From: Alphaproteobacteria bacterium
GTDB lineage: Bacteria; Pseudomonadota; Alphaproteobacteria; JANQMY01
Direction: 5' to 3'
DNA: 64,000 nt
Assembly: GCA_965227095.1 (NCBI GenBank)
Contig: CBDDFL010000002.1
Coordinates: 83,025-147,024 of the forward strand
Positions 1,295 through 29,659 of this stretch are shown here, piece by piece (position 1 is the stretch's first letter; every line of letters begins with the position of its first letter). The position numbers and the translations under genes are program-made. Below the pieces are notes generated by a model. The model ran no database searches, had not been told where the DNA came from, and was given only the letters and a program-made list of their open reading frames with translations.

Positions 1295-1654
1295 AGCGCG
1301 AAATTGACAATAAAATCAGTGCATTAGTTCATATTCACAGTTTGAAATTCAAATAACGAATTTCAATGCTTGACGACCGATGGGGGTTTGTTTAACGCCA
1401 TACGGTGAGGTCTGAGGAATAGGGTCGCAATCATGTGTCTCTCCTGGAGACGCAGGGGCCAACGGGCAAGCGGTCGCGTTCCTCGCTCACCCCGATTGGC
1501 GGTATGTGCGAGGGCTCTGTGCATTGCCAATCGGCTGATGTGCCTGCTTTCGTCCTCTTGCCCTGGGTCGGATGCGTCCGCATATTGGGCCCGATGCGGG
1601 TCAGGTACCATGAAGAGACACGCGCCTGAGCAATAATAGTCGAGGTAAGAACAC

Positions 1655-2824: not shown

Positions 2825-2963
2825 CCCCAACGCCAGCCGATCAATTCGGGTTGCCCTCTGATGCCGATATCAAATGTGGATTGCAACGAGAATTGATCGT
2901 TCGTCTAAGGATCTTTCATCTGTGTGGTGATCGAACGGACGGTCCCGTCTTTTGGAGTCGTAT

Positions 2964-3893: not shown

Positions 3894-5253
3894 CGATCAC
3901 CGCACCGCCCGCTTGCGCGTGCTTCATGTCTGTTATTCAGACGGCAATGGCGGCGCGGCCATCGGCGCGCGTCGGTCGCATAATGCCATGCTGTCTCAAG
4001 GCATCGACTCGGTACTTGCTGTGGTTAAAAAGACCACGAACGACTCGCGGGTGATCGAGCTCCCTGAAAATCCGGCCCGGCGTTTTGTTTCCCGTCAACT
4101 GACGCGATGTGTTGAATGGTTCCAGACATCGGACAACAAGGTATTTCGCACACTGAATATCATTCCGATGGGGGCAGCTGACGTTTTAAATACGATAGAG
4201 GCCGACATCATCCAACTGCATTGGGTTGCGGCGGACACCGTTTCCATCAGCGAATTGGCTAAGCTGAATAAGCCGATTGTTTGGAAACTGCCCGATATGT
4301 GGGCTTTCTCGGGTGCCGAACATTACAGCCAAATCGAAAGTGCCGACCGGTTTGCGGATGGCTACACCGCATCCAACAGACCCAAGGGGCAAGCAGGGCT
4401 GGATATCGACCGTTGGATTTGGACCTACAAAAAAAACGTGTGGCGCGATGTGAACTTTAACATTGTCGGGCCCAGTAAATGGATTGCGGATTGCGCGCGC
4501 CGCAGCATCCTCTTTAAAAACGCCCGCATTCGCCATATTCCGAATCCGCTGGACTTGTCCCTTTACGCGCCACAGCCGAAATCTGACGCCCGTGCGGCTT
4601 TTGGCCTGCCGCAGGACCGAACGTTGGTCATGTTTGGGGCGCTTCATGCGACCACCGATCCGCGCAAGGGGTTTCAGCACCTTCAAGCTGCTCTGGATCA
4701 CTTGCCGCAACATTTAGACCCCAACACCACGTCCATTGTGGTGATGGGGGCAGACGGTCCTAGAGGGCAAAAGACGGGCCCCTATGACACGCACTATCTG
4801 GGTGTCCTGCGAGAGGAAAAAGAAATTGTCGCGGCCTACTGCACTGCGGATGTTTTTGTTTTGCCGTGTGAAATGGACAACTTGCCGAATGTGATCAAAG
4901 AAGCCACGTGCTGTGGGGTGCCGTGTACCGGGTTTGATGTTGGCGGCATGCCGGACATGATTGACCATCAAGAAACGGGGTATTTAGCGAAACCGTATGA
5001 TCCGCAAGACCTGGCGCGCGGCATCGGGTGGGTCGCGCAACACGCAACCGCCGATTTTCGCAAAGAAGTGCGGCGTCGCGCGGAACTCAAGCATGCAGAG
5101 CATGTTGCCGTTAATCGGTACGTAGAATTTTATGACGAAATTCTCGGCCGGCCGTCAGCCCCGGATCAGAAATCCGAACGCTCAACCGAGGACGCAAAAA
5201 CGTCGGCGCAGGAACCGCAGAATGAGAATAACATCATACGGGAGGTCTTGTGA
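3883..5253 (+). CDS. glycosyltransferase, GT-B fold (GT4-like)
   Basis: 456 aa with a C-terminal E-x7-E-like GT4 signature region (…VLPCEMDNLPNVIKEATCCGVPCTGFDVGGMPDMI…). It overlaps the upstream epimerase by 11 bp. Confidence 0.7.
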   Translation: MTTDDHRTARLRVLHVCYSDGNGGAAIGARRSHNAMLSQGIDSVLAVVKKTTNDSRVIELPENPARRFVSRQLTRCVEWFQTSDNKVFRTLNIIPMGAADVLNTIEADIIQLHWVAADTVSISELAKLNKPIVWKLPDMWAFSGAEHYSQIESADRFADGYTASNRPKGQAGLDIDRWIWTYKKNVWRDVNFNIVGPSKWIADCARRSILFKNARIRHIPNPLDLSLYAPQPKSDARAAFGLPQDRTLVMFGALHATTDPRKGFQHLQAALDHLPQHLDPNTTSIVVMGADGPRGQKTGPYDTHYLGVLREEKEIVAAYCTADVFVLPCEMDNLPNVIKEATCCGVPCTGFDVGGMPDMIDHQETGYLAKPYDPQDLARGIGWVAQHATADFRKEVRRRAELKHAEHVAVNRYVEFYDEILGRPSAPDQKSERSTEDAKTSAQEPQNENNIIREVL

Positions 5254-5306
5254 CGTCGTTTAAAAGTCGAACAGTTCGACAAAACAACAGAACGTGGTGC
5301 TGAAAA

Positions 5307-7091
5307 ATGACGTCCTGCGCGCCCATTGCATTGTTTGTCTATAATCGTCCGGACCATGCGTCTCGCACGCTGGATGCACTTCGGTCGAATTCGCTTGCTC
5401 CTGATACAGATCTTTTTATTTTTAGCGACGGTGCAAAAAATGCGGCGGACGAACCTCACGTTGACGCGGTTCGCGATATCCTGAAAGACGTCCGTGGATT
5501 TAAGAGTGTGTCCGTCGACCGGAGCGGGCAAAACAAGGGCTTGGCTCAGTCGATTATCGGCGGCGTCTCAAACATCGTGGACCGGTTTGGCCGCGTGATC
5601 GTCATCGAGGATGATCTGGTAACCCATCCCTCAACGCTCAGCTATTTCAATCAGGCACTGGATCATTTCGAGAATCATCCAAATGTGTTTTCGATCAGCG
5701 CCTATAACCACCCAGCCGATATCATGCCGATTCCTCAGTCGTATGAGTATGACGTTTATGCCAATCCACGAATGCAATGCTGGGGTTGGGCGACGTGGAA
5801 GGATCGCTGGCAGAAGGCCGATTTTTCAATGCCGGATTTTGAAGAATTCGACCGATCTGAAACCTTGACACGAGCCTATGCCCATTGGATCGGACAAGAC
5901 AGTCTCAACACATTGCGCGCGCATATGCGGGGAGAACTAGACGTCTGGGCGTGCCGCTGGGTCTATACCCATTTCAAACATCAGGGTGTGTGCATATGTC
6001 CGACAAAATCATTGGTCGATAATATCGGGTTGGATGGCTCCGGCGAAAATTGCAGCTCTGTGACCCACCTGAAGAACGAGCTGACTGCTGACAAGACGGC
6101 GTCCTGGCGTTTTCCGCCGGTTGCGTTTATCGAGCCGGCCATTTTTACGGCGTTTATGGACGTCACAGATCCGGGAACACGAAGAGTGCCGGCGAACGGC
6201 CTGACTGTTCATAATCAGGCGGCTTCCGCAGGGCCAGGTTTGGCGGAGCGGTTCGCTTATTGGAGCGCACATCCAGGGAAGTTCTTAAGAAGGTTGCCGG
6301 AAAAAGGTGCGGAATATTTGGCGGGCTTATCCGGTCGATCGACGCATTTTTCAAAAGCGTCACTGCAGCGTGCGCATCAGGAGCTATCGGCGCCACCGAC
6401 GGTCCCGCTTGTTCGTCTTGGGACGGAGTATGGCGGCTGGCATGTCCCGCAAACCGGGTTGGGCCCTTCTGATGTGGTTGTGTCGGCTGGCGCGGGTGAG
6501 GACATCTCTTTTGATATGGAGTTGGCGGAAAGGTTCGGGTGTCGGATCGTGCTCCTAGATCCAACGCCACGCGCGTTCGATCATTTTTCAGAGACATCCG
6601 CATCAATACGCAGCGGCCGTGCAGCGGCCATAAATGGGTCTTCAACAGAGTTTTACCGGGCAAATCCGAAAAATCTTGACCATCTTACGTTTCAACCCTG
6701 GGGTCTTTGGCGCGAAACAACGCGTCTTCAGTTTTTTGAGCCGGAGAATCCAACTCATGTAAGCCATTCGATCGGTAACCTTCATCAGACAGAGAAAGGA
6801 TTTGAAGCCGAATGCGTGTCGCTGAGCGACCTTATGGCGCGCGAGGATGTGTCGAAAGTGTCTGTGCTGAAAATGGATATTGAGGGCGCGGAATTCGACG
6901 TGCTGGATCAGATGCTTACGACCAAAATTCGCCCCACTTTCTTACTGGTTGAATTCCATCCGGGTAAGGATGCTCAGGAAAGGACCTACCGTGGGCGGAC
7001 CCTTCAAACCCTTAGGCGCCTTTATGACGAAGGGTACCGATTGGTCCAGTACAGCGGGTGGGATTATGTGCTTGAGCGTCAAGTGATCTAG
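5307..7091 (+). CDS. bifunctional glycosyltransferase (GT-A-like N-domain) / FkbM-family methyltransferase (C-domain)
   Basis: 594 aa. The N-terminal ~250 aa contain ALFVYNRP…IVIEDDL, a GT-A DXD-type signature. The C-terminal ~220 aa contain VSAGAGEDISFD…LLDPTP…VLKMDIEGAEFDVL, which are FkbM (Methyltransf_21) signatures. Confidence 0.65.
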   Translation: MTSCAPIALFVYNRPDHASRTLDALRSNSLAPDTDLFIFSDGAKNAADEPHVDAVRDILKDVRGFKSVSVDRSGQNKGLAQSIIGGVSNIVDRFGRVIVIEDDLVTHPSTLSYFNQALDHFENHPNVFSISAYNHPADIMPIPQSYEYDVYANPRMQCWGWATWKDRWQKADFSMPDFEEFDRSETLTRAYAHWIGQDSLNTLRAHMRGELDVWACRWVYTHFKHQGVCICPTKSLVDNIGLDGSGENCSSVTHLKNELTADKTASWRFPPVAFIEPAIFTAFMDVTDPGTRRVPANGLTVHNQAASAGPGLAERFAYWSAHPGKFLRRLPEKGAEYLAGLSGRSTHFSKASLQRAHQELSAPPTVPLVRLGTEYGGWHVPQTGLGPSDVVVSAGAGEDISFDMELAERFGCRIVLLDPTPRAFDHFSETSASIRSGRAAAINGSSTEFYRANPKNLDHLTFQPWGLWRETTRLQFFEPENPTHVSHSIGNLHQTEKGFEAECVSLSDLMAREDVSKVSVLKMDIEGAEFDVLDQMLTTKIRPTFLLVEFHPGKDAQERTYRGRTLQTLRRLYDEGYRLVQYSGWDYVLERQVI

Positions 7092-7378
7092 ATCAGAGTG
7101 GATACAGGAACATTTGACCCATCGACTTCTGATGAATAGGGGAAATAGGTGACGACACACTTGATCTGCCTCCACGGCTCAGTTGACGCCACGGAAACGC
7201 TTTGAAACGGCATGAACGGAGATATCAGGACTAGTATTGGCGGCGAAATATTGGTACGCAAATCTCTTGCGTTCGGCATGGGCATTCGCGGGAATGCCGT
7301 TTGTCGCGATGTCACCGATACTTTCGCCTAAGAGGCTGTCTGGCAGATTGAACTCGACGAAAAGAAAACCACTATTCC

Positions 7379-8425
7379 ATGTCTGCTTCTAATCGATCAG
7401 CATTGATATTTGGCGTCACGGGCCAAGACGGATCCATTCTTGCGCACCAATTGGTGGAGCAAGGATGGAAGGTCTATGGTGGGTATCGCCGTGGTGGCCA
7501 CAATAAACTCTGGCGCCTTGAGGAATTGGGCATCCTGGACAAGATTGAGCTGATCAACATTAATCTGTTGGAGCCCTTTCTGGTCTTGAATATCGTTTCT
7601 GATATTACGCCAGAGCATGTCTATCAGCTGGCGGGCGACAGCTATGTTGTTGACTCGTTCGAGCAACCACGGTCCGTGCTGGAAAACAATTGCATTAGTA
7701 CGCTGAACGTCCTGGAAGCCATTCGGATCGCCGCCCCTGAGGCGCGGCTTTTCTTTCCCTCCAGTTCAGAAGTGTTCGGAAGTGCAACGGCTGGAAAAAT
7801 GATGGACGAAGGCGGTCCCTTTTCGCCGCTTAACCCCTATGGTCTGTCGCGGCTTGCCGCTCAAAAACTCATTGATATCTACCGCCGCCATCACGGCCTG
7901 CACGCATGTTGCGGTATTATGTTCAATCATGAAGGCCCTCTTCGCGCTCGCAGTTTTGTCACCCGAAAGATAACCTACAATCTCGCTCGGTTGAGGTCCG
8001 AAGGGGGCAGGCCGGTCACATTGGGAAATTTAAACACGCGCCGCGATTGGGGCTCTGCCGAAGACTATGTGAGCATCATGCCCACCCTTTTGGACCTAGA
8101 AGTGCCTGATGATTTTGTATTTGCCACAGGCACCACAACCACACTGAGAAGAATGATTGAGGTCGCCGCCGATTATGCAGGCTTTCAACCGGAATTCGAT
8201 GGGGAAGGGCTCAACGAAGTGTGCGTTGATCGCAAGTCCGGGCAAATTCTCGTGGATGTGGGGCTCGAATTTTTCCGGAAGTCCGACACGCCGCCGCTGG
8301 TTGGCAACCCGGCCAATTTGAAGAATTCAACGGGGTTCAAAGGATCCCGAAAGATCGAGCAAACAATCGTGGAAATGGTTCAAGCGGATATCGATCGGCG
8401 TGAAAAGGGAAATATCAACGTCTAG
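7379..8425 (+). CDS. GDP-mannose 4,6-dehydratase paralog, divergent (catalytic YxxxK replaced by YxxxR)
   Basis: Contains IFGVTGQDGSIL, PSSSEVFG and MFNHEGPLRARSFVTRKIT, aligning with Gmd. The Tyr-x3-Lys block reads NPYGLSRL (Arg instead of Lys). This is a second gmd-like gene in the locus. Confidence 0.7.
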   Translation: MSASNRSALIFGVTGQDGSILAHQLVEQGWKVYGGYRRGGHNKLWRLEELGILDKIELININLLEPFLVLNIVSDITPEHVYQLAGDSYVVDSFEQPRSVLENNCISTLNVLEAIRIAAPEARLFFPSSSEVFGSATAGKMMDEGGPFSPLNPYGLSRLAAQKLIDIYRRHHGLHACCGIMFNHEGPLRARSFVTRKITYNLARLRSEGGRPVTLGNLNTRRDWGSAEDYVSIMPTLLDLEVPDDFVFATGTTTTLRRMIEVAADYAGFQPEFDGEGLNEVCVDRKSGQILVDVGLEFFRKSDTPPLVGNPANLKNSTGFKGSRKIEQTIVEMVQADIDRREKGNINV

Positions 8426-8568
8426 GCTGTTGTGGCGCCGTTTTCAGCGGCCCAACTAGATTTATTTGCTTTAACGTCTGTGTCCAGATCGTCCAAGAGG
8501 CGCGACAAAATCTCACAGCGCTGATACTATACCACGAATTTCCCAATCTTAGTGGTCGAGGTATCGCG

Positions 8569-9549
8569 TTGCCATCAAACCTATTGATAACAGGCGGGGC
8601 CGGTTATATCGGCAGTCACGTTGTGTTTGGGGCATTGGACGCCGGGAATAAAGTCACCGTGGTCGATGACCTGTCCACCGGTCACCGGGCGTGCCTTCCA
8701 TCAGACATCCATTTTGTGGAAGGGGATGTGGGTGACAAAGCGTTTATCGACGAGGTGCTGCGCAAGGTGGAGCCGACAACAGTTCTTCATTTCGCGGGCT
8801 CAATTATTGTACCGGAATCGATTGCGAACCCGATCAAATATTATTCCAACAATACGTCCGCGTCCCTGACACTGATTGAAGCCTGCGTTCAATCCGGCAG
8901 TGTCAGCGAGTTCATTTTCTCATCCACCGCTGCGATTTACGGAATGCCGGCGGGCGGCGTAGCAACCGAAGAAACCGAAGCCAATCCGATCAACCCCTAT
9001 GGCCGGTCCAAATGGATGACCGAACAAATATTGTCCGATACATATAAGGCATACGGACTAAATTATGCAGTGCTTCGATATTTCAACGTTGCCGGTGCCG
9101 ATCCTCAGAAACGGACGGGTCAATTCTCGCCGGATGCAACTCATCTGATTAAGAAAGCGTGCCAAGCGGCATTGGGCACCAATCCGAATATGCAAATTTT
9201 CGGTACGGATTACGATACTCCCGATGGCACCTGTGTGCGCGACTTCATCCACGTTTCTGATTTGGCAGACGCGCATTTGAAGGTGATCGACTTACTGCGG
9301 CGGTCGGGTCACCCCCACACTCTCAATTGTGGGAACGGTGCCGGTTATTCGGTGCGTCAGGTAATCGCCGCAGTTGAGGCGGAAGTCGGCCATACAATCC
9401 CCGTTATTGAAGCCGAGCGCCGTGCGGGTGATCCGCCGAAATTGATCGCCGATGCCAGCAAGCTGCAGTCACTCACGCGCTGGCGCCCGAAATTTACGGA
9501 CCTCGCATCGATCGTGCGATCAGCGTTAGAGTGGGAAGAACGACTTTAG
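8569..9549 (+). CDS. galE: UDP-glucose 4-epimerase
   Basis: Contains LLITGGAGYIGSHVV, SSTAAIYG and NPYGRSKWMTE (YxxxK), typical of GalE. The start codon is TTG. Confidence 0.8.
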   Translation: MPSNLLITGGAGYIGSHVVFGALDAGNKVTVVDDLSTGHRACLPSDIHFVEGDVGDKAFIDEVLRKVEPTTVLHFAGSIIVPESIANPIKYYSNNTSASLTLIEACVQSGSVSEFIFSSTAAIYGMPAGGVATEETEANPINPYGRSKWMTEQILSDTYKAYGLNYAVLRYFNVAGADPQKRTGQFSPDATHLIKKACQAALGTNPNMQIFGTDYDTPDGTCVRDFIHVSDLADAHLKVIDLLRRSGHPHTLNCGNGAGYSVRQVIAAVEAEVGHTIPVIEAERRAGDPPKLIADASKLQSLTRWRPKFTDLASIVRSALEWEERL

Positions 9550-9611
9550 CTCTAAGCAAGCGTGTCTGCGAGAGAAGACCGTTCATTCAGTCGGTCGAAA
9601 CGAATAACCGG

Positions 9612-10292
9612 TCAGTGCCAATCCAACCGAACTCTGCTGGACAGCCCCGCGTCTTGGATTAGCTTGCGCATCGCTTCTGTTGCGTCGCGCAGCAGCGGGT
9701 TCTTGCGTTCGTGCGTTTCGATGACCGCGTTTTCAATATGGTCAAACGATCCCTGCGCAACCAGATGGGGGATGACGTCAACTTCCGCACCCTCAATGTC
9801 CATTTTCATTAAATGAATAGATTGTGGGAGACTATTTATGAAGCGCGCTAAATCAACTGTCTGTACGGAGACAGTTTCGTTTTGCAGTACGTTTGTCTTT
9901 TCCGCTTTGAGAGACGAACCTGTGGAAAAGGCTACCTCATTCTCTTTGTGTAATTCATGCAGATACAATGACGCTTCGCCGTCGCAATTGGAAACGGCAG
10001 CGTTATGAAGCGTGATGTTTGGCCAATTTCCCAGATTGCGCGACAACATTTCGAAAGCCACCGGATTTGGCTCGAACGCGTGAACGATTGCGCCACGCAA
10101 CCCCAATATGAAGCTCATTCGGCCAACATTGGCGCCCGCATCAATGACAAGGTTCCCCTTTACGGCCGAGTTGAGCATTGCTGCCAGTTCTGGCTCGACG
10201 GACGCCGGCAGAAAGCGCCCCGCGCGATATTCCTTGAACCACTTCCAACTCGTTTTCGATAAATGCCGCGGAAAGGCAAGGCGTCCAATCAT
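9612..10292 (-). CDS. FkbM-family SAM-dependent methyltransferase
   Basis: Contains VIDAGANVGRMSFILG…LMKMDIEGAEVDVIPHL, which are FkbM domain motifs. Confidence 0.75.
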   Translation of the reverse strand: MIGRLAFPRHLSKTSWKWFKEYRAGRFLPASVEPELAAMLNSAVKGNLVIDAGANVGRMSFILGLRGAIVHAFEPNPVAFEMLSRNLGNWPNITLHNAAVSNCDGEASLYLHELHKENEVAFSTGSSLKAEKTNVLQNETVSVQTVDLARFINSLPQSIHLMKMDIEGAEVDVIPHLVAQGSFDHIENAVIETHERKNPLLRDATEAMRKLIQDAGLSSRVRLDWH

Positions 10293-10304
10293 ACCAAGTT
10301 CATC

Positions 10305-11264
10305 CTACGATTCACGGTGGCCGCCAGCGCCGACCGCAGTTTCCCAAGCACTGCCAAAACGGGCGATCTGTATACCGATCACTTCAAAAAAGTAGTTCCT
10401 AAAGGTCGGGTATGTCTGCCGATCTCTCCAAACAAGCCCTTTCAGGGCGGACAATCCGATTAATCCCGAAAAACTCGCGCATCGCCCAATCGCGGCACCG
10501 CGGCTGCGCAATGTGACGACCTTATCTCTCGCAAAAATTTGCGCTGAAACGCGCCCATTGGCAAATCTTAGCCGGGCGATGTGCAAGAGGTCCAATTTTT
10601 CCGGTCGGACAAGGTGACGTAAGAAAACACCGGGATCGAAATAGACGAGGGCTGCGGGGTCTTTTTTCCGCAGCCTTATCTGAAAGTCAGTCTCCTCGCC
10701 ATAGCTGATTTTGTTGCCTGACATTCCAAGTTCCGGATTGAAACCGCCCATCTCTTTGATGCGTTTGCGCTCGACAAAGAAATTTCCGCCGCTGATAAAC
10801 TCAGTCGGTCCCAAGGCTCCCGCGGCAGATCTGCGTTTGTTGGAGCTTCCATATTTATCTTTGAACCAGGCGGGTTTTTGGCCCTGGTACCAGGGACCAT
10901 AAGGACCTCCAAAGACGGCTGGTTGTTGGTTTTCTATCACTGCAAGGGCTGCGTCGAGCCATTTGTCGTCAACGATGCATTCATCGTCAATGTAACCCAC
11001 ATATGTCCCGACCGCAGTTGCCGCGCCGCGATTGCGTGCATGGGACAAACCTTGCGCCGGTTCAAACACGTAGCGTGCGTTTGGTTTGTCGGCAATGAGG
11101 TTCTGTATGGTGTGGGCGGTGGTGTCGGTGGAGTTATTGTCAACCACGACAGCCTCGACTTGGTCGTGTTTCTCTATCGCGTCGAGCACGGAAAGGAGGG
11201 CGGTGGCGGCAAGGTCCGCCCGATTATAGGTGCAGATGACAATAGAAAGAATAATGTCGTTCAT
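10305..11264 (-). CDS. glycosyltransferase family 2
   Basis: Contains LSIVICTYNRADLAATALLSV…VVVDNNSTD…YIDDE, a GT2 N-terminal signature. Confidence 0.8.
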   Translation of the reverse strand: MNDIILSIVICTYNRADLAATALLSVLDAIEKHDQVEAVVVDNNSTDTTAHTIQNLIADKPNARYVFEPAQGLSHARNRGAATAVGTYVGYIDDECIVDDKWLDAALAVIENQQPAVFGGPYGPWYQGQKPAWFKDKYGSSNKRRSAAGALGPTEFISGGNFFVERKRIKEMGGFNPELGMSGNKISYGEETDFQIRLRKKDPAALVYFDPGVFLRHLVRPEKLDLLHIARLRFANGRVSAQIFARDKVVTLRSRGAAIGRCASFSGLIGLSALKGLVWRDRQTYPTFRNYFFEVIGIQIARFGSAWETAVGAGGHRES

Positions 11265-11294
11265 TCTGATGGGAAAACTGTGGGGGCGGTTTGG

Positions 11295-12275
11295 TTATGA
11301 CGTGGCTTTAAGTTGATGCGAAAGGGCGCGCATTGCCATGTTCTGCGACACCCGCCCGATGGGGCGATTGCCCAGACGTCGCCAAAAATTCCGCCAAACG
11401 GTTTTGTTTTTCTGGGGTGTCGATGTGGTGTGGAGAAATTTTTCCCAGATGCGCAGTAGATTTCGCGCGGCAACAAAGTCATCCCGCCCGAAAAGCGACC
11501 GGATGCCATGTTGAAACACGCCGCGCAAGTGAAGGAGGTCGTCCTCGGACATGTTTAAGGTTGGATCCAGTCGTGCGATGTTTCTGGCCGAGACTTTATT
11601 GGCAAATTTCTGCTGTTGGGGGCGCAAACGCCCACTGATGCTGTGGGTATTTATGCGGTAACGGACAAGCGTCTCGGGAAGATTGGATACGGTCCCCTTT
11701 TCTATGAGACGCGACCACAACTCATAATCCTGGGAGTATTGGAAATCTTCGTCGTAGAGTACCGGAGTGTCCCCGAGGCCCTCTCTCCTGAACATCATCG
11801 AACTATGGCAGAACGCATTGTGAAACAGGAGTTGCCAGGCGATTTCATGTGAGGCGGTTGGAACCTTGATGCTTCGGACCACCTGCCCGTCTTCATTGAT
11901 GGTTTTGTAAAACGTGCCCAAGGCAAGCAAGCCGGCGTCTTCTTCAAATGCTTTGATTTGCTGCGCGAACCTGTTGGGTTCCGAGATGTCGTCGGCGTCT
12001 TGACGGGCGACCAACGCTCCGCGGGATTGATGGATTGCAACATTCAACGACTTTGTGAGGCCGATATTGGTGTCGTTCGGGATGATCCGTACCCGTTGAT
12101 CCTGCGCGGCATACTGCGCTAAGCGTTCAGAACTGCCGTCAGTCGAACCGTCATCGACAATAAGAAACTCAAAATCATCAAAGGTTTGCTGCAGAATGCT
12201 CTCAACCGCTTCGTCTAAATGACGCCGGGTGTTGTGAACCGACATAATGACAGAGATGGACGGGGCGCTGTTCAT
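11295..12275 (-). CDS. glycosyltransferase family 2
   Basis: Contains ISVIMSVHNTRRHLDEAVESILQQTFDDFEFLIVDDGSTDGS…ARQDADDIS, the GT2 DxD/DDGS signatures. Confidence 0.8.
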   Translation of the reverse strand: MNSAPSISVIMSVHNTRRHLDEAVESILQQTFDDFEFLIVDDGSTDGSSERLAQYAAQDQRVRIIPNDTNIGLTKSLNVAIHQSRGALVARQDADDISEPNRFAQQIKAFEEDAGLLALGTFYKTINEDGQVVRSIKVPTASHEIAWQLLFHNAFCHSSMMFRREGLGDTPVLYDEDFQYSQDYELWSRLIEKGTVSNLPETLVRYRINTHSISGRLRPQQQKFANKVSARNIARLDPTLNMSEDDLLHLRGVFQHGIRSLFGRDDFVAARNLLRIWEKFLHTTSTPQKNKTVWRNFWRRLGNRPIGRVSQNMAMRALSHQLKATS

Positions 12276-12305
12276 AAGGTCAAACGAATTGCCTCTCCTA
12301 AGCCA

Positions 12306-13139
12306 TTATAAACGCGTTGCAATCGCGTACGCCCGGTGTTGGGACGCCGTAATGTGGTCGACGCGATAGTGCCCTTTCGCTTCCACAGCGTTGATCGCGG
12401 AAACGACACCTGGAAATTCCTGCGGTGTCACATCGTCGAAAACAATCATGTCACCTGTTTGTTGGCGAGAGGCGACATAATTGTATTCCTCCAACACGTC
12501 CTTCTCTTCATGGGTTGCGTCCAGAAAAGCAAAGTTGACGCGGCTCAGCCCAATCGTTTGTAAAAGATCACGGACATTGCCTTCCACAAAACAAATACGC
12601 CGCAGCAGAGGCTCCCAAGGGGCTAAAATTTCAGATCGTGTTTTCTCGCGCTCCAAATCATCAATACAATTCCAGATCATTGGGATGTGGTGGGGCAGAC
12701 GGTCAAGCGTAACGATGGACCCCTCTATGCCCGCGTCCTCAAGCGCCCTGGACATGACAACCGAGGAAAACCCGCGCGCTGTGCCGGTTTCAAAAATGGT
12801 GACAGGGTAGTCGGGATCGTTGTCCAAATATTTCCGTAAGGTGGCGTAAAGGACCCGCCCATGTCCGTAGTTAAGTGGATTCTTCTTGACGACACATTGG
12901 GTATGGAGGGCGAGCTCATTCATCCAGCCAAGGTCGATGGCGAAACCGGTATTTTGTTCGACCGACTCAACCTCCGGATAGGATTGATCGCAGGCTTGTT
13001 GATGCAACGCCAAATAGGTTTCTCGATCGGCATGGGGGGCGGTGCCCAACGGGGCGGCGGCGCGCATTTGGGCTGACGGAGCCGACGGCACAGGGGCAAT
13101 CAACTGGCGGAGTTTTGATGTAAGTCCGGTTCCGAACAT
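12306..13139 (-). CDS. SAM-dependent sugar O-methyltransferase, TylF/MycF (macrocin-O-MT)-like
   Basis: Contains IFETGTARGFSS (an E-x-G-x-x-R-G-x-S motif) and LDATHEE, resembling the TylF/CmcI family. The family assignment is tentative. Confidence 0.55.
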   Translation of the reverse strand: MFGTGLTSKLRQLIAPVPSAPSAQMRAAAPLGTAPHADRETYLALHQQACDQSYPEVESVEQNTGFAIDLGWMNELALHTQCVVKKNPLNYGHGRVLYATLRKYLDNDPDYPVTIFETGTARGFSSVVMSRALEDAGIEGSIVTLDRLPHHIPMIWNCIDDLEREKTRSEILAPWEPLLRRICFVEGNVRDLLQTIGLSRVNFAFLDATHEEKDVLEEYNYVASRQQTGDMIVFDDVTPQEFPGVVSAINAVEAKGHYRVDHITASQHRAYAIATRL

Positions 13140-13165
13140 AGGATTAAAGTGCGTGTTCCTGAGAT

Positions 13166-14314
13166 CTAGGTGCTGACGGTCTGAGGTGTAAGGGCGGCCT
13201 TTTCATAAACCGCAAGCTCCATTTCCACAACACGGTCGAGCGATACAGTGGATTCGATTTCTCTGCGCGCGGCATTGCCCAGCCGCCGTGCGCAATCAGG
13301 GTCATCGAGAAGCTGCTTGATTGCCGCCCGTAAAGAATGACTGTTTGTATCTGCAAGCAAGCCCGTTCGGTTGTGGTCAATCACATTGTTGATGCCGGGA
13401 GAATTGCCGCCGACCACGCTGATGCCGCAAGACATGGCTTCCAACAGGGTTTTTGGATGGCCCTCATAATTGGATGGCAAGACGAAAACATCCGCGTTGT
13501 TGATGTAGTTCGGGATCTCATGGTTAGGGACGGCCCCATGGAAGCGTACGGCAATGTTTTTCTCGCGCGCCAAAGCGTCCATCTGCGCTTGTAAGGGACC
13601 TTTGCCGATAACATCTAGTTCTGCATCAAGTCCCGCCAACGCTTCAATCAAGAGCAAAGGGTTTTTTTGCGGACTGAGGCGACCGATGAAGATCACTCGC
13701 CGCTGGCTTGGCCTGCGGGCAGGGGGGGCAAATAAGTCCGTGTCCACATAATTTGGAACGACATTGATTTTGTCCGAGGCAACCCCATAGGACAGAACAG
13801 TATCGCGCATGGCGCCGGTCGAAACGATTGATTGTGCGGCGGCGCCAAAGGCATTTCGTTCCAGAGCTTCCGCGGCGCGAAACTGGGGTGATGATCCACC
13901 GTGAGCCCGTGCTTCAAAGTCAGAAAGGAGATAACCGCAGCGAGCGATAAAAACACTATTGTCAATCTGTGCCAAGCGCTGGGCCTCGTCGGCGCCTTTA
14001 ATTTGATTGGACTTAAATATCGCAAGGCTTCCCCGGCAACGCTGCCGCGTCAGGCCTGGTAACAAACGCCGGTAAACCCAATTTGGGATGCCAAATCTGT
14101 TGACGATCAAACCGATGCCGGGGAATTGGTTTATTACGTCCAGATCTTTGTGGGTGCCGTGAGACACAATGGTCACACCCGCAAGGTTGGGCTTTAGCCG
14201 GCTGTAGAGGGCCATTTCCCGTGAGAGCATGCCGATGTCTTGCCATGCTTTCAGGGACATGCCGGTTGTTAGAACAACAAACAAATGAATTGGGTGTGTT
14301 CGGTCGGTCGTCAT
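13166..14314 (-). CDS. glycosyltransferase family 4 (GT-B)
   Basis: Contains …VFVLPSNYEGHPKTLLEAMSCGISVVG…, the GT4 E-x7-E region. Confidence 0.75.
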   Translation of the reverse strand: MTTDRTHPIHLFVVLTTGMSLKAWQDIGMLSREMALYSRLKPNLAGVTIVSHGTHKDLDVINQFPGIGLIVNRFGIPNWVYRRLLPGLTRQRCRGSLAIFKSNQIKGADEAQRLAQIDNSVFIARCGYLLSDFEARAHGGSSPQFRAAEALERNAFGAAAQSIVSTGAMRDTVLSYGVASDKINVVPNYVDTDLFAPPARRPSQRRVIFIGRLSPQKNPLLLIEALAGLDAELDVIGKGPLQAQMDALAREKNIAVRFHGAVPNHEIPNYINNADVFVLPSNYEGHPKTLLEAMSCGISVVGGNSPGINNVIDHNRTGLLADTNSHSLRAAIKQLLDDPDCARRLGNAARREIESTVSLDRVVEMELAVYEKAALTPQTVST

Positions 14315-14339
14315 CTCTGGTCAAAGATCGGTATGCAGA

Positions 14340-15053
14340 TCAAATGCGTTGCACAATCGCGGCATATCCGTGAGCGGGGATCGGAATAAAAGGGTCTAGA
14401 CGAAGCGAGATTCTTAACAGTTGGCCGTAGATTGATTTGAACACTTTGTTGCGTCGCGCCCCACGATACCGGATCCGATGAACGCTTTTCTTAAGAAATC
14501 TCGTCACGGAATTGTCCGGCAGGAGGTCAAGCAATAAACGCCACACCATCGCGGTTTCTAAGACACCGATCCACAGAAAGTGAAGAAGGTAACTGGGCAG
14601 TCCGCCAAACTTCACAATGTCGACCACGCGGTAGCCGGAGCTTTCAAATACTTTTTGAAGTGTCGAGGGCGAGTAGTACCGCCAGCCATGATATCCGTAA
14701 AGCAAGAAGGCAGCAGAGGATGGCACAATGTGCAGGCCAAAGGCACCCGGCTCTGTGTGAGCTGCGACACGGGCAATGGCCGCTTTCTCGTCTTCGACGT
14801 GCTCAAGCGCGCTTGAACTCATGGAGAAATTGGACCGCATGTCCGGCATGTCCAAATCCTCGCACTGAGCCAGCACAAGTTCTTTCGAAAGCGGGGCGTC
14901 CGCTGGCGATCCACACCATCGGCTATGTTTTTTCACGTCTATGCCGATATAGCGGCCGCTTCGATTGGCCTTTTTGAACCAGTCGTAGTGGTCTCCAGGG
15001 CCGCACCCGATATCGATAATCACAGCGTTTTCAGGACAATAATGTGGGATCAA
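14340..15053 (-). CDS. class I SAM-dependent methyltransferase
   Basis: Contains IIDIGCGPGDHYDWF (the glycine-rich SAM motif I) and LEHVEDEKAA (motif II region). Confidence 0.65.
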   Translation of the reverse strand: MIPHYCPENAVIIDIGCGPGDHYDWFKKANRSGRYIGIDVKKHSRWCGSPADAPLSKELVLAQCEDLDMPDMRSNFSMSSSALEHVEDEKAAIARVAAHTEPGAFGLHIVPSSAAFLLYGYHGWRYYSPSTLQKVFESSGYRVVDIVKFGGLPSYLLHFLWIGVLETAMVWRLLLDLLPDNSVTRFLKKSVHRIRYRGARRNKVFKSIYGQLLRISLRLDPFIPIPAHGYAAIVQRI

Positions 15054-15375
15054 TTCGCTGAGACACGCTTCCGTGTAAATTCGGGTTGGTGATGGCGCAT
15101 CTTTAACCCGTTGCGGAAGATCACAGGATGTCCCGATGACCTGTTTTCGTGATGCTTTTGCGGACTGCCTGACGCCGAATATCCGAGAGAAGCCGGCGCC
15201 ACATAAGTGCGCCGCTCATCAGGTGTCAGCGAGGGGTTGTCCCCACACACTTCTCCGAACCGGTTCACGGTCATGGAGTCTGCCTGATCAATGGCAGGTG
15301 GTGTTTTGAGTTGATCTGAGGCGTCACGTTCTTCTGAGTGACCAAACGGCGACACGGCATCATGGCAACTTTCCC

Positions 15376-15387
15376 CACGCTACCGCC
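15376..15387 (-). promoter_or_regulatory. ops (operon polarity suppressor) element, exact 12-mer GGCGGTAGCGTG on the minus (coding) strand
   Basis: The plus strand reads CACGCTACCGCC at 15376-15387, whose reverse complement is GGCGGTAGCGTG. It sits in the 390-bp leader between the RfaH-like gene (stop 15444) and the downstream minus-strand MT/GT operon (first start 15053). Confidence 0.6.
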
Positions 15388-15443
15388 GTTCGGGTGAAAA
15401 TCACCCGTTGGTCAGTCCCTCCCGGCTTCTTGCATCAATGCGG

Positions 15444-15944
15444 TCATCGCGCCGATACAAGCGATCCTTTCGATACAGTCGCAACGACAGTACCACCCAA
15501 TGTTTCCAGCAATAGGCGCGTCCGGTCACCCGGAAGCATGTCGCGGATTGTGGCAACACAGTCCACGAATGGGCCGGTAATGATTTTAACAAGATCACCC
15601 TTCTTCATTCCTGCGGGTGACAGTGAACAATTGCCCTCTTCGTCCAAAGAATATTTGAGCGCATCTATGAAATCGTGTGGCAATGCCTTCGGAGTCCGAG
15701 AGTCAGCGATGACATATTTGACGCCATACGTCCCGTTGATCGACGTCCACGGTTCGTTTTCAATATCAAGATCGACGAACACATATCCCGGAAAAACCGG
15801 TTCCGGTTTGGTTTGGATCCGTCCCGCATGACGGCGCGACCGCAGCATAACGGGCAGCCATGTGCGAAATCCTTGACGCTTCAGATTAATCTCCGCGCGT
15901 ACCTCCTGATGTGGCCGCGTGTGCACCACTGCCCAGCGTCTCAT
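15444..15944 (-). CDS. NusG-family transcription antiterminator, RfaH-like paralog
   Basis: 166 aa, similar in length to RfaH. It has an NGN-like N-terminus (WAVVHTRPHQEVRAEINLKRQG…EPVFPGYVFVDLD) and a KOW-like C-terminus (GDLVKIITGPFVDCVATI). It overlaps the upstream regulator by 4 bp (ATGA). Confidence 0.8.
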   Translation of the reverse strand: MRRWAVVHTRPHQEVRAEINLKRQGFRTWLPVMLRSRRHAGRIQTKPEPVFPGYVFVDLDIENEPWTSINGTYGVKYVIADSRTPKALPHDFIDALKYSLDEEGNCSLSPAGMKKGDLVKIITGPFVDCVATIRDMLPGDRTRLLLETLGGTVVATVSKGSLVSAR

Positions 15945-16591
15945 CGGGGGTCCTCCTCTAACGGGCGCTCGCCGGTTGCAAAATCCGGCGTATCCCGCGT
16001 CACCCGCATAAAGTCCGGTGTTAGAATGGAACGTGGATCGACCGTCTTGGTGAGTTCATCGTAGGTGTGTTGAGGTGTCCGCGACTCAACCACGATGATT
16101 CCCGGTACTGTGGTTAGAGTCTCAAGCTTTCCGATCACGGGGTGTCCATTCTTTTGCGCCAGATTGCTACCAGGGCAATAGAGGCCCAAAATTTGAACAT
16201 CCCCCTCACTGGCTGCCAGGAGCGCAATCTCGATCAGCTCACCGTCACCGGCTAAAACGAACGTGTCCACACCACACGCTTTTGCGCGAGCGAACAGATC
16301 CGCATATTGACCTTTTGCGAGACGAAAAAAACCGAGCGACGATTCTAGATACTCGGCCACCAGACGTGACTTTTCCTGAAACCCTTTTGGTGTCAGATAA
16401 TACGCGTATCGCTTATAGGGAGCGGCCTGGACTTTCACGAAGCCCTTTTTGACGGCCCGCTTGAGCAGGGCATTGACAAATCCCACAGAAACCGACACCC
16501 GCTTGGCAAGCGACATTTGCGTAATCACATCGCCGCGTTCCAGCTCGGTAAGAAAATCGATTTCGCTTTGCGCTTTCGCCTTGTCGGCCAA
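15941..16591 (-). CDS. putative transcriptional regulator: N-terminal winged-helix, C-terminal Rossmann/CoA-binding-like domain (Rex-like architecture)
   Basis: The N-terminus contains ITQMSLAKRVSVSVGFVNALLKRAVKKGFV…YYLTPKG, a MarR/Rex-type wHTH. The C-terminus contains VDTFVLAGDGELIEIALLAASEGDVQILGLY, a βαβ nucleotide-binding-like segment. The domain assignment is inferred. Confidence 0.5.
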   Translation of the reverse strand: MADKAKAQSEIDFLTELERGDVITQMSLAKRVSVSVGFVNALLKRAVKKGFVKVQAAPYKRYAYYLTPKGFQEKSRLVAEYLESSLGFFRLAKGQYADLFARAKACGVDTFVLAGDGELIEIALLAASEGDVQILGLYCPGSNLAQKNGHPVIGKLETLTTVPGIIVVESRTPQHTYDELTKTVDPRSILTPDFMRVTRDTPDFATGERPLEEDPR

Positions 16592-16899
16592 TGATTTCTG
16601 CCTCTTGGATAGGGATTTTTGGTTTATATACTCACACTGTGAACGTCAAGCTATGAATAGGTATCAGGGGCGGGAGGCAACGGATACATGGGCATAGGGT
16701 GTGGTGCGCGCGGCTATGTGGGTCCGGGTGACATTGGAGCGTCGTCTGCAGCAGAATTTTCGGCGAATTCAGGCGACAAATGCGAATGTGCGGGGGCTCA
16801 AGCCCATTGAAAGAACTTCTGAATTTTTGTTAACTATTCGGTGACGAACGCACGCCACTCTGAATAATATTGGTATGATTCTGTTTTTGCGTCGAAAGC

Positions 16900-17925
16900 T
16901 TGAGGCCAATGAAATGGAGCTTTCGCAGAGGTCAGCAGGTGGGTAGGTCCCCTAACGTAAATTCACAACTTGCATTGTCCATTGTGACGCCGGTCAAGAA
17001 CCGCGTGGATATGGTGGATGCGTGCATAGTCAGCGCCGCCAAGCAGTCAAAGTCGCCTTTTCGGTCGGTTGAGCATTTGTTTGTGGATGGCAATTCGACA
17101 GATGGCACCGTAGAGCGGATCGAAAGTTATCAGCATTGCAGCCTGCTGCCACAGAAGGTGACGGGAATTTATGACGGTATGAATGCCGGCATTCGGGCTG
17201 CCAAGGGCGATATCATTTGTATTCTCAATTCCGACGATCAGTTGGCACCTGATGCGTTAGACGCCGTCTACCAAGGCTTTAGAGATCATCCAGACGCGGA
17301 AGTCATTGCAGGGCGCGCGTCCGTGCGAGACGTGGAGCAACCGCATGTGTCCTTGCGGCACTTGCCGACACCGCATGATGAAGGGGTGAATGAGTGGCCG
17401 GTGCTTTTATGGGGCGGCGTGGCGATCAATGCGCGTTTTTTCAGGCGCCAGGTCTTTGAGAAGATAGGGTTGTTCAATACAGAATTGTCCTTGGCGTCGG
17501 ATCGGGAGCACCTCATTCGCCAGCGTCTTGCAGGCATTCGAAGCCATTCCGTTGACCATGTGCTCTATCATTACACCGCCCATAAAGGGTCGGCGACCAT
17601 GGGGCAAAAAAATCGCAATGCGATGACCGTGCTCAATGAACATGTTTCGATCATGGATTGGCTTCGGCCACAAATCGCTGCCGACAGTAAAGGGCTCAGT
17701 TCGCTTCGCAAATGGGCCGCGATCGAACTCAGCCGGCGGGCCATCCTAAAGTACAGATCGCAAGATTGGAGCGGGGCAATGACTGATCTTGCCAGAGCGA
17801 CGTCATATTGCTGGCGAACAAGCCGCTATGTTGTTTATCACGAAGGTATTGCGGCGCCGTCAAGGGCGAAAGTGTCGCCGTCACAGCCCGAAGCTGCCGA
17901 AGGGGTCTTTCGGACGGCACGTTGA
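16900..17925 (+). CDS. glycosyltransferase family 2
   Basis: Contains LSIVTPVKNRVDMVDACIVSAAKQ…FVDGNSTDGT…ILNSDD. The track start is TTG; an ATG alternative lies at 16909. Confidence 0.75.
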   Translation: MRPMKWSFRRGQQVGRSPNVNSQLALSIVTPVKNRVDMVDACIVSAAKQSKSPFRSVEHLFVDGNSTDGTVERIESYQHCSLLPQKVTGIYDGMNAGIRAAKGDIICILNSDDQLAPDALDAVYQGFRDHPDAEVIAGRASVRDVEQPHVSLRHLPTPHDEGVNEWPVLLWGGVAINARFFRRQVFEKIGLFNTELSLASDREHLIRQRLAGIRSHSVDHVLYHYTAHKGSATMGQKNRNAMTVLNEHVSIMDWLRPQIAADSKGLSSLRKWAAIELSRRAILKYRSQDWSGAMTDLARATSYCWRTSRYVVYHEGIAAPSRAKVSPSQPEAAEGVFRTAR

Positions 17926-18133
17926 TCAGCATGCAAACTGATTTAACGCGCAACATCAATTCGGTTGTCGTGAAACGCGGTTGTCGGGCGCTCAAACGCC
18001 AGGTGACCTCACCGCTTGTAAAGGGACAGATGCGCCCCTATCTTAATTAACGTCATTTACCGGACATATTTCGACATGGAAAAGATCTTCGCCGCCTTCA
18101 CTCCTTCGGTTTTGCATCGAGAAGATCTGTCCA

Positions 18134-19717
18134 ATGTCTGCATCCCTTTCAATTTCCGGCGTGTCTTGGTCAACACCTGACGGCACCCGGCTTTTCTCTG
18201 ACCTAAACCTGACTTTTGGCGCTGAGCGTGTTGGCATCGTTGGATTTAACGGTGTCGGCAAGAGCACACTATTGCGCCTGATTGCGGGAGACCTGACGCC
18301 AGATTCGGGTCAGGTGACGACATCGGGCCCCATCGCGATGATGCGGCAAGAGAGCATGGAGCAACCAGGAGACACGATTGCCGACCTGTTTGGCGTCCGC
18401 GCGGACCTTAATCTACTCGACCGGGCTGAAATCGGATGGGCGAGTGGCGATGAATTGGCCGACGCTGATTGGACATTGCCCGCGCGGCTTCAGTCGGCTC
18501 TGTCGAGATGCGGGCTTGCTGTTGATGCACAAACGCCCCTTGCCACTCTGTCCGGTGGACAATGCAGTCGTGCAGCCCTTGCCGCGCTGATTTTTATGGA
18601 GCCGGACTTTCTGCTTCTTGATGAGCCAACGAATAATCTTGACCGCGATGGGCGAAAAGCCGTGAGCGATGTTCTTCGCGGCTGGGCTGGAGGGGCGATT
18701 ATTGTCAGTCACGATCGCGGGTTGCTGGAGGAAATGGATGCGATTGTGGAGCTGACGTCTCTCGGCGCCACGCGTTACGGCGGAAACTACAGCACCTTCA
18801 GGCACCTGAAACAGGTTGAGGTGGATGCCGCGGCGCGCGATCTTTCCCATGCCGAAAAAGAGAAGGCCGAAGCCTCCCGGCGTGCGCAACAGGCCGCTGA
18901 GCGCAAGGCGCGTAAGGACAGTGCAGGGCGCAAGGCACGCACGAAAGGCGATCAGCCAAAAGTTGTCATGGATGCGGCCAAAGAAAGGGCGCAGGCGTCG
19001 GATGGAGCAGGGGCTCGCTTGCGCGACACAAAGCGGGAGGCAGCGGAGAACGCCCTGTCAAAGGCTCAGAACAAAATCGAAGTTCTTCAACCATTGCGAA
19101 TGGACGTTCCCTCAACCGGTCTCGCACCCAACAAAACAGTGCTTCAGCTTAACGATGTGAGCTTCGGCTATGATCCGGGTCGTCCTGTCATCCGTGATCT
19201 GTCGATGACGGTCACAGGTCCGGAACGCGTGGTCGTCGCCGGACCAAACGGTTGTGGCAAAACCACCCTTCTCAAATTGATCGCGAACACAATAAAGCCT
19301 CAGCAAGGGCGTATCGGCCTGAAGGTACCGTTTGCATTGCTGGATCAAAACATCGGATTGATCGATCCGACGAGGACACTGCAAGAGAGTTTCCTGCGCC
19401 TGAACCCCACCGCGACCGCGCATAGGGCGTACGAGGTGTTGGCGCGTTTCGGTTTTCGTTCCGATGACGCCAACCGGTCAGTAGGCGCCCTAAGTGGTGG
19501 AGAAAAGGTCCGTGCCGGTCTTGCCTGCACCCTTGGCGCCACGCCGCCCCCTTCGTTGTTGATTCTGGATGAACCGACGAACCATCTGGATTTGACCGGT
19601 ATTGCGGCCTTGGAGGATGCGCTGGCTGAATACGATGGGGCGTTGCTGGTTGTGAGCCACGACGAAGCGTTTCTAAAATCGATCGCGGTTGTCAAAACCA
19701 TCCGTTTGAGCGGGTGA
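18134..19717 (+). CDS. ABC-F family ATPase (two ABC domains, no transmembrane domain)
   Basis: Two Walker A motifs (GFNGVGKST and GPNGCGKTT), two ABC signature motifs (LSGGQCSR and LSGGEKVR), and a charged inter-domain linker rich in K/R/A/E. Confidence 0.85.
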
Positions 19718-19800: not shown

Positions 19801-19890
<90 letters not shown>

Positions 19891-29495: not shown

Positions 29496-29659
29496 CCAAA
29501 AACCAACCTTTTTGGTCAGTTATATCAAGCAAGCATTTCCAGACGGCGTATACTGGCGTGACGGGACCGGCCTGATTTCGGTCCCTTGAGCGTCTTTGAG
29601 GTTGCGATGTCGTGTGCCGCCGCTGAGATCTCAGAATGGTAGAAAGGTCGGCAAACGCG

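Follow-up and report, generated by a model that had tools for sequence, protein, structure and literature searches.

A candidate RfaH/ops-type regulatory head with a covarying hairpin at a surface-glycan operon in Alphaproteobacteria

Results

The window analyzed here, a stretch of 64,000 nucleotides (nt) from an alphaproteobacterial genome (contig CBDDFL010000002.1 of assembly GCA_965227095.1), carries on its minus strand a 12-nt sequence, GGCGGTAGCGTG, that is identical to the ops (operon polarity suppressor) element of E. coli. RfaH and ops are the textbook example of how an elongation factor is loaded at a specific sequence. In the window, the ops-type element directly follows a hairpin and lies between a gene encoding a 166-amino-acid (aa) RfaH-like NusG paralog, which is preceded by a gene encoding a 216-aa winged-helix regulator, and an operon of glycan genes. 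From the anatomy of the sequence, its conservation and covariation, the synteny and the predicted fold, all reported below, we conclude that the regulator gene, the RfaH-like gene and the hairpin-ops site are probably the regulatory head of this surface-glycan operon, with a function of the RfaH/ops type.

Conservation of the ops-type element

The exact 12-mer is present once in the window (motif search), and 0.36 matches with at most one mismatch are expected from dinucleotide-preserving shuffles of the window. Its presence on the minus strand next to a NusG/RfaH-like gene, the starting point of the original prediction, was confirmed; the 166-aa open reading frame (ORF) matches Pfam PF02357 and, as its best NCBIfam match, TIGR01955. 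The gap between the stop codon of this gene and the 12-mer is 56 nt, and not the 60-70 nt first given.

Related loci were collected from exact-protein look-ups (four loci) and as a set of 80 non-redundant loci with one genome per species. The locus titles were almost all alphaproteobacterial and included Rhodospirillales, Kiloniellaceae, Hyphomicrobiaceae, Methylocystis, Bradyrhizobium, Micavibrio, Thalassospira, Rhodospira and many unclassified metagenome-assembled genomes (MAGs). The 8-mer GCGGTAGC was found on the strand of the RfaH-like gene, no more than 300 nt past its stop codon, in 36 of the 80 loci, compared to 0.63 expected from the background density of the same 8-mer in the same 899 kb (Poisson p about 1e-49). 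The distance from the stop codon to ops was 50-92 nt in 35 of these 36 loci and 153 nt in the other, and distance, strand and flanking hairpin were kept across protein identities of 37% to 98%. When both strands of the related loci (935 kb) were searched for a composite pattern, CACCC-N3-6-GCGGTAG, 43 occurrences were found, 38 of them 0-200 nt past the stop codon of an RfaH-like gene. The element recurred in Rhodospirillales, Kiloniellaceae, Hyphomicrobiaceae, Micavibrio, Thalassospira, Rhodospira and other lineages, and carriers of the module that are in culture include Thalassospira mesophila, Micavibrio aeruginosavorus, Rhodospira trueperi and Terripilifer ovatus. These results bear out the earlier claim that the match was unlikely to be coincidental and the second of the alternatives offered with it, a conservation of ops wider than usually assumed, and the comparative data support the proposed linkage of ops to the adjacent RfaH-like gene and glycan operon.

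The closest relative of the window (L205, 97.9% identical over 7.4 kb) carries GGCGGTAGCATG in place of the exact 12-mer. At this divergence of 2.1% the element has two changes, one at ops position 10, which is free, and one in the inner stem or loop. Since this relative differs at position 10, the match of the window to the E. coli 12-mer at that position is incidental, and the weight that the original prediction placed on the exact 12-mer is not upheld. As judged from the aligned loci, the conserved unit is a covarying hairpin of 6-10 bp with a TCACCC 3' arm, followed by a 4-nt linker and then by (G/T)GCGGTAGCnTG.

Copies of the element were also observed in other arrangements. It lies upstream of the RfaH-like gene in L054 (5549-5589 and 5832-5872, two identical copies 283 nt apart) and in L064 (5864-5903), and a second copy is present in L032 at 4038-4073, 2.6 kb downstream of the first. 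These upstream and doubled copies suggest alternative wiring, such as autoregulation or re-loading. In L040 and L071 the element is a few kb from the RfaH-like gene. In metagenomes, a pattern scan gave 121 sites, about 40 of them in agreement with the strict motif. An RfaH-like ORF terminates directly upstream of 25 of all 121 sites. Strict sites that lack an adjacent RfaH-like ORF number at least eight. At five of eight such sites the next ORF is of polysaccharide type (GFO/IDH/MocA, FkbM, NTP-transferase, CpsB/CapC or Wzy_C), and a sixth site directly follows a tyrosine-kinase gene. Strict copies without an RfaH gene thus precede polysaccharide genes, indicating that the signal is also used away from the gene of the factor.

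The hairpin upstream of ops

Among sites picked on GCGGTAGC alone, TCACCC was invariant five bases upstream (37/37), its 4-nt spacing to ops position 1 was fixed in every aligned site, and nearly all sites folded into a hairpin with a 3' arm ending in TCACCC(G). In the window, G15391 is the 3' member of the closing pair of the stem and, together with the unpaired AAC that follows, makes a 4-nt G-R-A-N stretch from TCACCC to ops. The mean stability of native stems was -10.9 kcal/mol compared to -8.7 +/- 0.19 when the arms were swapped between loci, and none of 2000 arm-swap permutations was as stable as the native stems.

Pairs were counted by an anchored script, as MAFFT alignments of the element placed gaps at the ends and not in the loop and were unusable for this purpose; a covariance-model alignment with reverse-strand palindrome hits was left out of the statistics. 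Over 67 sites the closing pair was C-G in 44, U-G in 12, U-A in 7 and G-C in 2. Pair 8 was A-U in 27, C-G in 11, G-U in 8, G-C in 3 and U-A in 1, and pairs 9 and 10 vary likewise, such that compensatory changes are present at pairs 1, 8, 9 and 10. The loop is mostly 3-7 nt, and up to 20 nt, in length. With one tolerant position excluded, 41 G.U pairs were counted against 4 A.C pairs. The variable spacing, the compensatory changes and the strand-specific wobble pairs thus argue for a single-stranded structure in the sense orientation, most simply RNA, in which case transcription enters the element from upstream. The hairpin covariation and the G.U excess indicate that the element is transcribed on the sense strand. 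The 5' arm tolerates uncompensated changes (GGGGGG, GGGCGA) while the 3' arm is invariant, and TCACCC is therefore under an extra sequence constraint beyond pairing. The site agrees in both sequence and strand with ops of the E. coli type, a 12-nt GGCGGTAGnnTG on the non-template strand of the transcribed leader of a target operon; its transcription is suggested by the RNA-type covariation of the adjoining hairpin.

A covariance model of the element (R1), built from 12 equal-length members, gave one strong hit in the window at 15374-15409 (-) (46.5 bits, E = 2e-13) and weak, hairpin-less hits at two one-mismatch copies of the 12-mer (9.7 and 12.6 bits). The first of these copies, GGCGGTTGCGTG at 5041-5052 (-), has its mismatch at A7, is antisense inside a GT1 ORF (3883-5253, +), lacks a hairpin and scored 9.7 bits; it was taken as a chance match. 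The other, GACGGTAGCGTG at 41680-41691 (+), has its mismatch at the otherwise invariant G2 and lies on the right strand 27 nt upstream of an ORF for the undecaprenyl-diphosphatase BacA/UppP (41718-42521), beside a divergent transglycosylase gene. It was rejected as an ops site because it lacks TCACCC, does not fold significantly (z = 0.33) and has a covariance score of only 12.6 bits. It is probably a chance match as well; the envelope-related target is suggestive.

The hairpin was compared to known RNA motifs. No Rfam model, including JUMPstart (RF01707), matched within 14900-16800 even at E-values up to 10, and a scan of the whole window at the gathering score gave no match at the locus and none to JUMPstart anywhere. 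The curated JUMPstart motif was thus ruled out. The architecture is JUMPstart-like, with a stem-loop directly 5' of ops and glycan genes after it, and the sequence is different. An intrinsic terminator was also rejected, since GAAC-GGCGG, and no U-tract, comes after the hairpin and the hits of a terminator-like scan lie elsewhere or on the opposite strand. The hairpin could serve as a LoaP-like second recognition element, a backtracking barrier or a pause modulator.

The RfaH-like protein

The 166-aa protein matches the Pfam NusG family (PF02357) over residues 3-96 with 61.9 bits (E = 8e-17), and its NGN domain and single KOW-type C-terminal domain within about 160 aa are the architecture of RfaH. 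The scores for UpxY (NF033644, 65.2 bits, cut-off 100), NusG (TIGR00922, 48.7 bits, cut-off 135.7) and LoaP (NF033641, 43.8 bits, cut-off 125) did not reach their cut-offs. The neighbors of the gene are glycan genes and not the translation genes that usually surround housekeeping NusG. E. coli RfaH was the best sequence match among solved structures in the PDB (E = 2.6e-10, gapless over residues 1-100), at an identity of 26-30%, and a profile search with E-values up to 1e-5 returned 4,378 relatives, several with an RfaH label from their source. The original prediction had considered a recently acquired module of the enterobacterial type. This low identity to E. coli RfaH, a family of more than 4,000 members and a mild dip in GC content argue against such an origin.

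AlphaFold2 (AF2) models were built with 122 family sequences, and predicted local confidence (pLDDT) ranged from 71 to 85 across the models. The best model (pLDDT 85) has the NGN domain and a five-strand C-terminal domain with beta strands within 118-164; the autoinhibited alpha-hairpin that the original prediction proposed to look for by this means is absent from it. In Foldseek searches the full length of the model aligned to active, fully recruited RfaH (8phk_P, 6c6s_D) and to NusG, and autoinhibited RfaH chains (5ond, 2oug, 8pfg) aligned over the NGN domain only, about 95 columns.

In E. coli RfaH, the residues K10, R16, H20, T72 and R73 form a cluster that binds ops, and their substitution compromises function at ops (PMC2871177). 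The window protein has R10, R16, N20, T72 and Y73 at these positions and so departs from the E. coli cluster. R16 was kept in 121 and T72 in 118 of the 122 family members, and each of the residues that face DNA in E. coli (R16, R23, Q24, N70, T72 and V75) was kept in at least 105. Most members have A or V in place of E48, a partner in the autoinhibitory salt bridge. The window protein has E at this position, also retains I93 and the equivalent of R138, and may therefore switch fold.

The 216-aa regulator and the genes behind the element

The gene encoding the 216-aa protein overlaps the RfaH-like gene by 4 nt (ATGA), and homologs of the protein number more than 800. The gene is found upstream of the RfaH-like gene in 30 of 35 loci with the downstream element compared to 11 of 43 loci without it (Fisher p = 9e-8). 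Its N-terminus matched Pfam MarR_2 below the cut-off (21 bits). The NCBIfam model MarR_EPS (TIGR04176) matched residues 10-84 only, with 52.4 bits against a cut-off of 88; this is a single-domain family of about 105 aa, and the 216-aa protein, with its added Rossmann-like C-terminal domain, does not belong to it. The AF2 model (pLDDT 85.7) shows a long helix and the Rossmann-like domain beyond the winged helix. This domain has no Pfam match, and a Foldseek search of the model against solved structures gave none at E < 1e-3. A Rex-like identity was rejected, as the best Foldseek E-value was 1e-3 and Rex hits had E-values of about 0.02 and TM-scores of 0.24-0.29. The model weakly resembles Rex repressors and also the WbaP nucleotide-binding domain, which makes a role in sensing a nucleotide or nucleotide-sugar conceivable.

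The genes behind the element comprise methyl- and glycosyltransferases with an ABC transporter and NeuB in L001, a heptose-type pathway in L002 and NeuB/CMP-sugar genes in L004. A conserved regulatory head thus precedes glycan genes that vary between genomes.

Organization of the locus in the window

The coordinates of the features are given in Table 1. The six co-directional genes of the original prediction (methyltransferase, GT4, TylF-like methyltransferase, GT2, GT2 and FkbM) were confirmed by Pfam, the TylF-like gene as Methyltransf_24. The start of the operon was revised. It had been placed at 15053, about 320 nt from the 12-mer, and homology places the ATG of the first gene at 15274, 101 nt past the 12-mer. 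The intact homologs of this gene encode 311 aa (L205) and 313 aa (L001). The tblastn alignment of the window gene falls into two frames, and nucleotide alignment revealed a 1-nt deletion in a G-run at 15199-15201, GG in the window and GGG in L205, that splits the gene into a 74-codon ORF and a 237-aa ORF overlapping at TTGA. The apparent start at 15053 is due to this frameshift relative to the intact homologs. The deletion is either a real frameshift, and the gene a pseudogene, or a homopolymer error of the assembly. The original prediction mentioned neither the frameshift nor the TCACCC hairpin, the 216-aa regulator gene and the predicted beta C-terminal domain.

Table 1 Features of the locus in the window.
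Feature	Position	Strand	Basis or remark
Candidate promoter (TTGACG...TATAAA; TTCACA-17-AAAAAT)	16592-16700	minus	5' of the regulator gene; consensus scan
216-aa regulator gene	15941-16591	minus	winged helix, long helix and Rossmann-like C-terminal domain
166-aa RfaH-like NusG paralog gene (NGN and KOW domains)	15444-15944	minus	Pfam, NCBIfam, AF2
Hairpin CGGGTGA-TTT-TCACCCG	15391-15407	minus	3' arm TCACCC at 15392-15397
Unpaired AAC between stem base and ops	15388-15390	minus	pair-position table
ops-type element GGCGGTAGCGTG	15376-15387	minus	family consensus (G/T)GCGGTAGC-n-T-G
First operon gene, class I SAM methyltransferase (interrupted)	14340-15274	minus	tblastn, relative L205
GT4 gene	13166-14314	minus	Pfam
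Methyltransf_24 gene	12306-13139	minus	Pfam
GT2 gene	11295-12275	minus	Pfam
Second GT2 gene	10305-11264	minus	Pfam
FkbM methyltransferase gene	9612-10292	minus	Pfam

The operon ends at 9612, and beyond it lies a convergent epimerase gene (8569-9549, +). The result of the consensus promoter scan 5' of the regulator gene did not exceed the expectation from shuffles, and the candidate promoter is a lead only. Both regulator genes have strong Shine-Dalgarno sequences, AAGAGG for the 216-aa gene and GAGGAGGA for the 166-aa gene, and a Shine-Dalgarno sequence was absent within the usual window in four or five of the six glycan operon genes.

The glycan-related stretch extends from 347 to 19717, has a slightly lower GC content (52-54% compared to 55-59%), and abuts a tRNA gene followed by the housekeeping genes for LepA, PheST and ThrS. 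This tRNA gene (19804-19890, -) is the border between the glycan region and the housekeeping genes, a typical position for a variable island. Further features of the window are a second tRNA gene (43665-43748, +), a ZMP/ZTP riboswitch (RF01750, 62.2 bits) at 56961-57047 (-), directly 5' of an ORF at 55659-56984 (-), and a 190-aa ORF at 29636-30208 (+) with several EF-hand motifs (EF-hand_7, E = 2e-25), a domain that is uncommon in bacteria.

Discussion

We infer transcription of the site, pausing, binding and antitermination from comparison of related loci and from analogy with E. coli, and propose the following sequence of events. Transcription would start upstream of the regulator gene, and the polymerase would pass both regulator genes and transcribe the hairpin, as its RNA-type covariation suggests. 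RNA polymerase (RNAP) would then pause at the ops core, with G at -10 and T11/G12 at -1/+1, as expected from identity to E. coli ops; the core fits the consensus pause as well as the site at which E. coli RfaH loads. By analogy, the RfaH-like protein would load on the paused polymerase, displace or exclude NusG, and suppress pausing and Rho-dependent polarity, and the whole operon of about 5.7 kb would be expressed. The target genes of RfaH are poor in Shine-Dalgarno sequences (PMC7819879), and by the same analogy the RfaH-like protein would probably also aid ribosomes onto the largely Shine-Dalgarno-less glycan genes. Loading is likely to occur preferentially in cis, on the polymerase that just made the mRNA of the factor, because the distance from stop codon to ops is short and fixed and the C-terminal domain is predicted to be beta. 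Since copies of the element are also found without an adjacent RfaH gene, action in trans is possible too.

Several observations weigh against a function of the RfaH/ops type or limit the case for it. The scores of the protein for RfaH, 96.8 bits for TIGR01955 and 81.4 bits for NF006534, are under the cut-offs of 144.5 and 124. Two of the contacts to ops are replaced throughout the family, H20 by N in 121 of 122 members and R73 by F or Y in 116, and position 10 (K10 in E. coli) is L in 56 and R in 48 of 122, and thus L in about half. The HTT motif (H65-T66-T67), which RfaH needs for anti-pausing (PMC2871177), is replaced by P65-W66-T67 in the window protein, and all 122 members have W66. The beta fold of the C-terminal domain, on which the proposal of cis loading draws, comes from the single best AF2 model and is compatible with fold switching. 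The element is lacking near the RfaH-like gene in 44 of the 80 loci, and no element was found near the Rhodobacterales plasmid copies of the family. Members on Rhodobacterales and Rhizobiales plasmids adjoin polysaccharide genes too, yet without the element. An element universal in the protein family was ruled out by the plasmid members in Rhodobacterales, and the link between protein and element is therefore clade-specific. A transcription start site could conceivably lie between the hairpin and the operon.

Alternative explanations were weighed against the same evidence. The palindrome GGGTGA...TCACCC, with or without GCGGTAGC, might be a duplex-DNA operator for the 216-aa regulator, acting in initiation control or as a roadblock, with its likeness to ops secondary. 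The strong co-occurrence of element and regulator gene (30/11/5/32, p = 9e-8) speaks for such an operator, as does an invariant TCACCC opposite a 5' arm with uncompensated mismatches, which is a sequence constraint beyond pairing. We nonetheless regard it as improbable, as the arm spacing varies from 3 to at least 7 nt, unlike that of a fixed dimer operator, and the compensatory changes and the 41 G.U compared to 4 A.C pairs are a single-strand signature. In addition, the regulator gene is missing beside the element in five loci and at several metagenomic copies, and the core matches the known RNAP pause and RfaH site at 8 of 8 bases plus T11 and G12. Recruitment might also resemble that of LoaP, such that the protein reads the RNA hairpin with its UCACCC stem and the ops core is an RNAP pause without base-specific read-out of DNA. 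The conserved, covarying hairpin with its invariant TCACCC and the replacement of H20 and R73, both ops contacts of the E. coli protein, are consistent with this mode, the top structural matches by TM-score include the NusG-RNA complex 8f5g (0.60), and, by our geometric reasoning, at the ops U11 pause the stem would lie just outside the RNA exit channel. The LoaP model scores far under its cut-off (43.8 bits compared to 125), however, and the family retains R16, R23, Q24 and T72. E. coli RfaH reads G5 and T6 as flipped-out bases; both bases and the C3:G8 pair are invariant here, which exceeds the pause consensus (G-10, Y-1, G+1), an argument that is weaker than it appears because ops positions 2-9 were the selection criterion. 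On balance we consider LoaP-like recruitment unlikely.

The 12-mer might lastly be a functionless chance or passenger match, or a relic of recent transfer from Enterobacteriaceae. The single copy in the window, the change at position 10 in the closest relative, the slightly lower GC content (52-54% compared to 55-59%) and the adjoining tRNA gene are in line with this. Against it stand the presence of the core in 36 of 80 loci compared to 0.63 expected, the distance, strand and hairpin kept across 37% to 98% protein identity, the 26-30% identity to E. coli RfaH, and the lack of a match to Rfam JUMPstart even at E = 10, and we give a chance match or relic hardly any weight.

A regulatory head of the RfaH/ops type thus remains our preferred interpretation, and the locus appears, from its sequence, to be a variant of the RfaH/ops (JUMPstart-like) system that is so far undescribed. 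We describe the protein as RfaH-like, and as probably working like RfaH, and do not file it as an RfaH ortholog because it departs from E. coli RfaH in its equivalog score, at the contacts H20 and R73, in the HTT motif and in its C-terminal domain, which is not predicted to be alpha. RfaH homologs are common in Alphaproteobacteria (18% of rfaH genes) and often adjoin envelope genes, one cluster adjoins a helix-turn-helix (HTH) regulator, and the mode of recruitment is known for E. coli RfaH alone (PMC7593976). JUMPstart is listed as a gammaproteobacterial motif (PMC2864571). No paper on an alphaproteobacterial ops or a TCACCC hairpin was found in an incomplete coverage of the literature, and the negative result is no more than absence of evidence; full-text hits for GGCGGTAG were all primers, and nothing relevant came from searching for RfaH in combination with alphaproteobacterial genera.

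The current model holds that ops contacts and autoinhibition arose late and together, and that cis-encoded homologs are independent of ops (PMC7593976, PMC7819879, PMC13015549). The alphaproteobacterial clade tests this model, as it combines a cis gene, a predicted beta domain and changed contacts with a near-canonical ops and a new hairpin. Tentatively, and with more doubt than confidence, we suggest that the clade is a missing intermediate in the evolution of RfaH, a non-autoinhibited factor that already uses ops, with specificity from geometry-based cis loading and with the hairpin as second recognition element or backtracking barrier. If so, recognition of ops would be older than autoinhibition and the H20/R73 contacts, which would reverse the published order with its late ops contacts, and ops would be an ancient proteobacterial signal and not an enterobacterial speciality. 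The finding offers no new principle but a testable counter-example to the sequence of events now accepted for the evolution of RfaH. The composite motif may also provide a compact marker for RfaH-type regulons and the starts of glycan operons in alphaproteobacterial genomes and MAGs.

RfaH and ops of E. coli and Salmonella, where ops is part of JUMPstart (RF01707), share with the locus a two-domain NusG paralog, GCGGTAGC with T11 and G12 on the non-template strand before long, variable polysaccharide operons, a hairpin just 5' of ops, targets poor in Shine-Dalgarno sequences, and conserved R16, R23, Q24, N70 and T72. JUMPstart/ops likewise sits before variable O-antigen and capsule loci. In contrast to E. 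coli rfaH, which is a stand-alone gene with a trans-acting product, the window gene lies immediately upstream of its own site and is co-oriented with its target. The window hairpin also differs in sequence (TCACCC arm) and does not match the JUMPstart model, the family has H20 replaced by N, R73 by F/Y and HTT by xWT and mostly lacks E48, and the window protein is below the RfaH equivalog cut-offs with a C-terminal domain predicted to be a beta-barrel. LoaP of Bacillus velezensis and UpxY of Bacteroides are, like the protein described here, specialized NusG paralogs at the head of an antiterminated operon, for secondary metabolites or capsule, and LoaP also uses a leader RNA hairpin. Both models nevertheless score under RfaH, and under their cut-offs, for the window protein, and we know of no ops core for either factor.

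PrfaH of IncX3 plasmids (PDB 9ik0) is RfaH-like, cis-encoded and co-transcribed with its target operon, and it needs an ops-like site although its key DNA-contact residues differ from those of RfaH (PMC11880322). The IncX3 site lies upstream of the prfaH ATG, whereas the window site lies past the stop codon; L054 and L064 have upstream sites as well. PrfaH acts on a type IV secretion operon and is partnered by the regulator H-NS, not by a winged-helix protein. The cis-encoded RfaH homologs predicted to be 'monomorphic' in a 2026 preprint by Tabilo-Agurto et al. (PMC13015549) resemble the window protein in their predicted beta C-terminal domain, their location beside or within long envelope operons and their altered ops-binding residues. 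These homologs were described as independent of ops, whereas the clade of the window keeps a near-canonical ops at a fixed distance.

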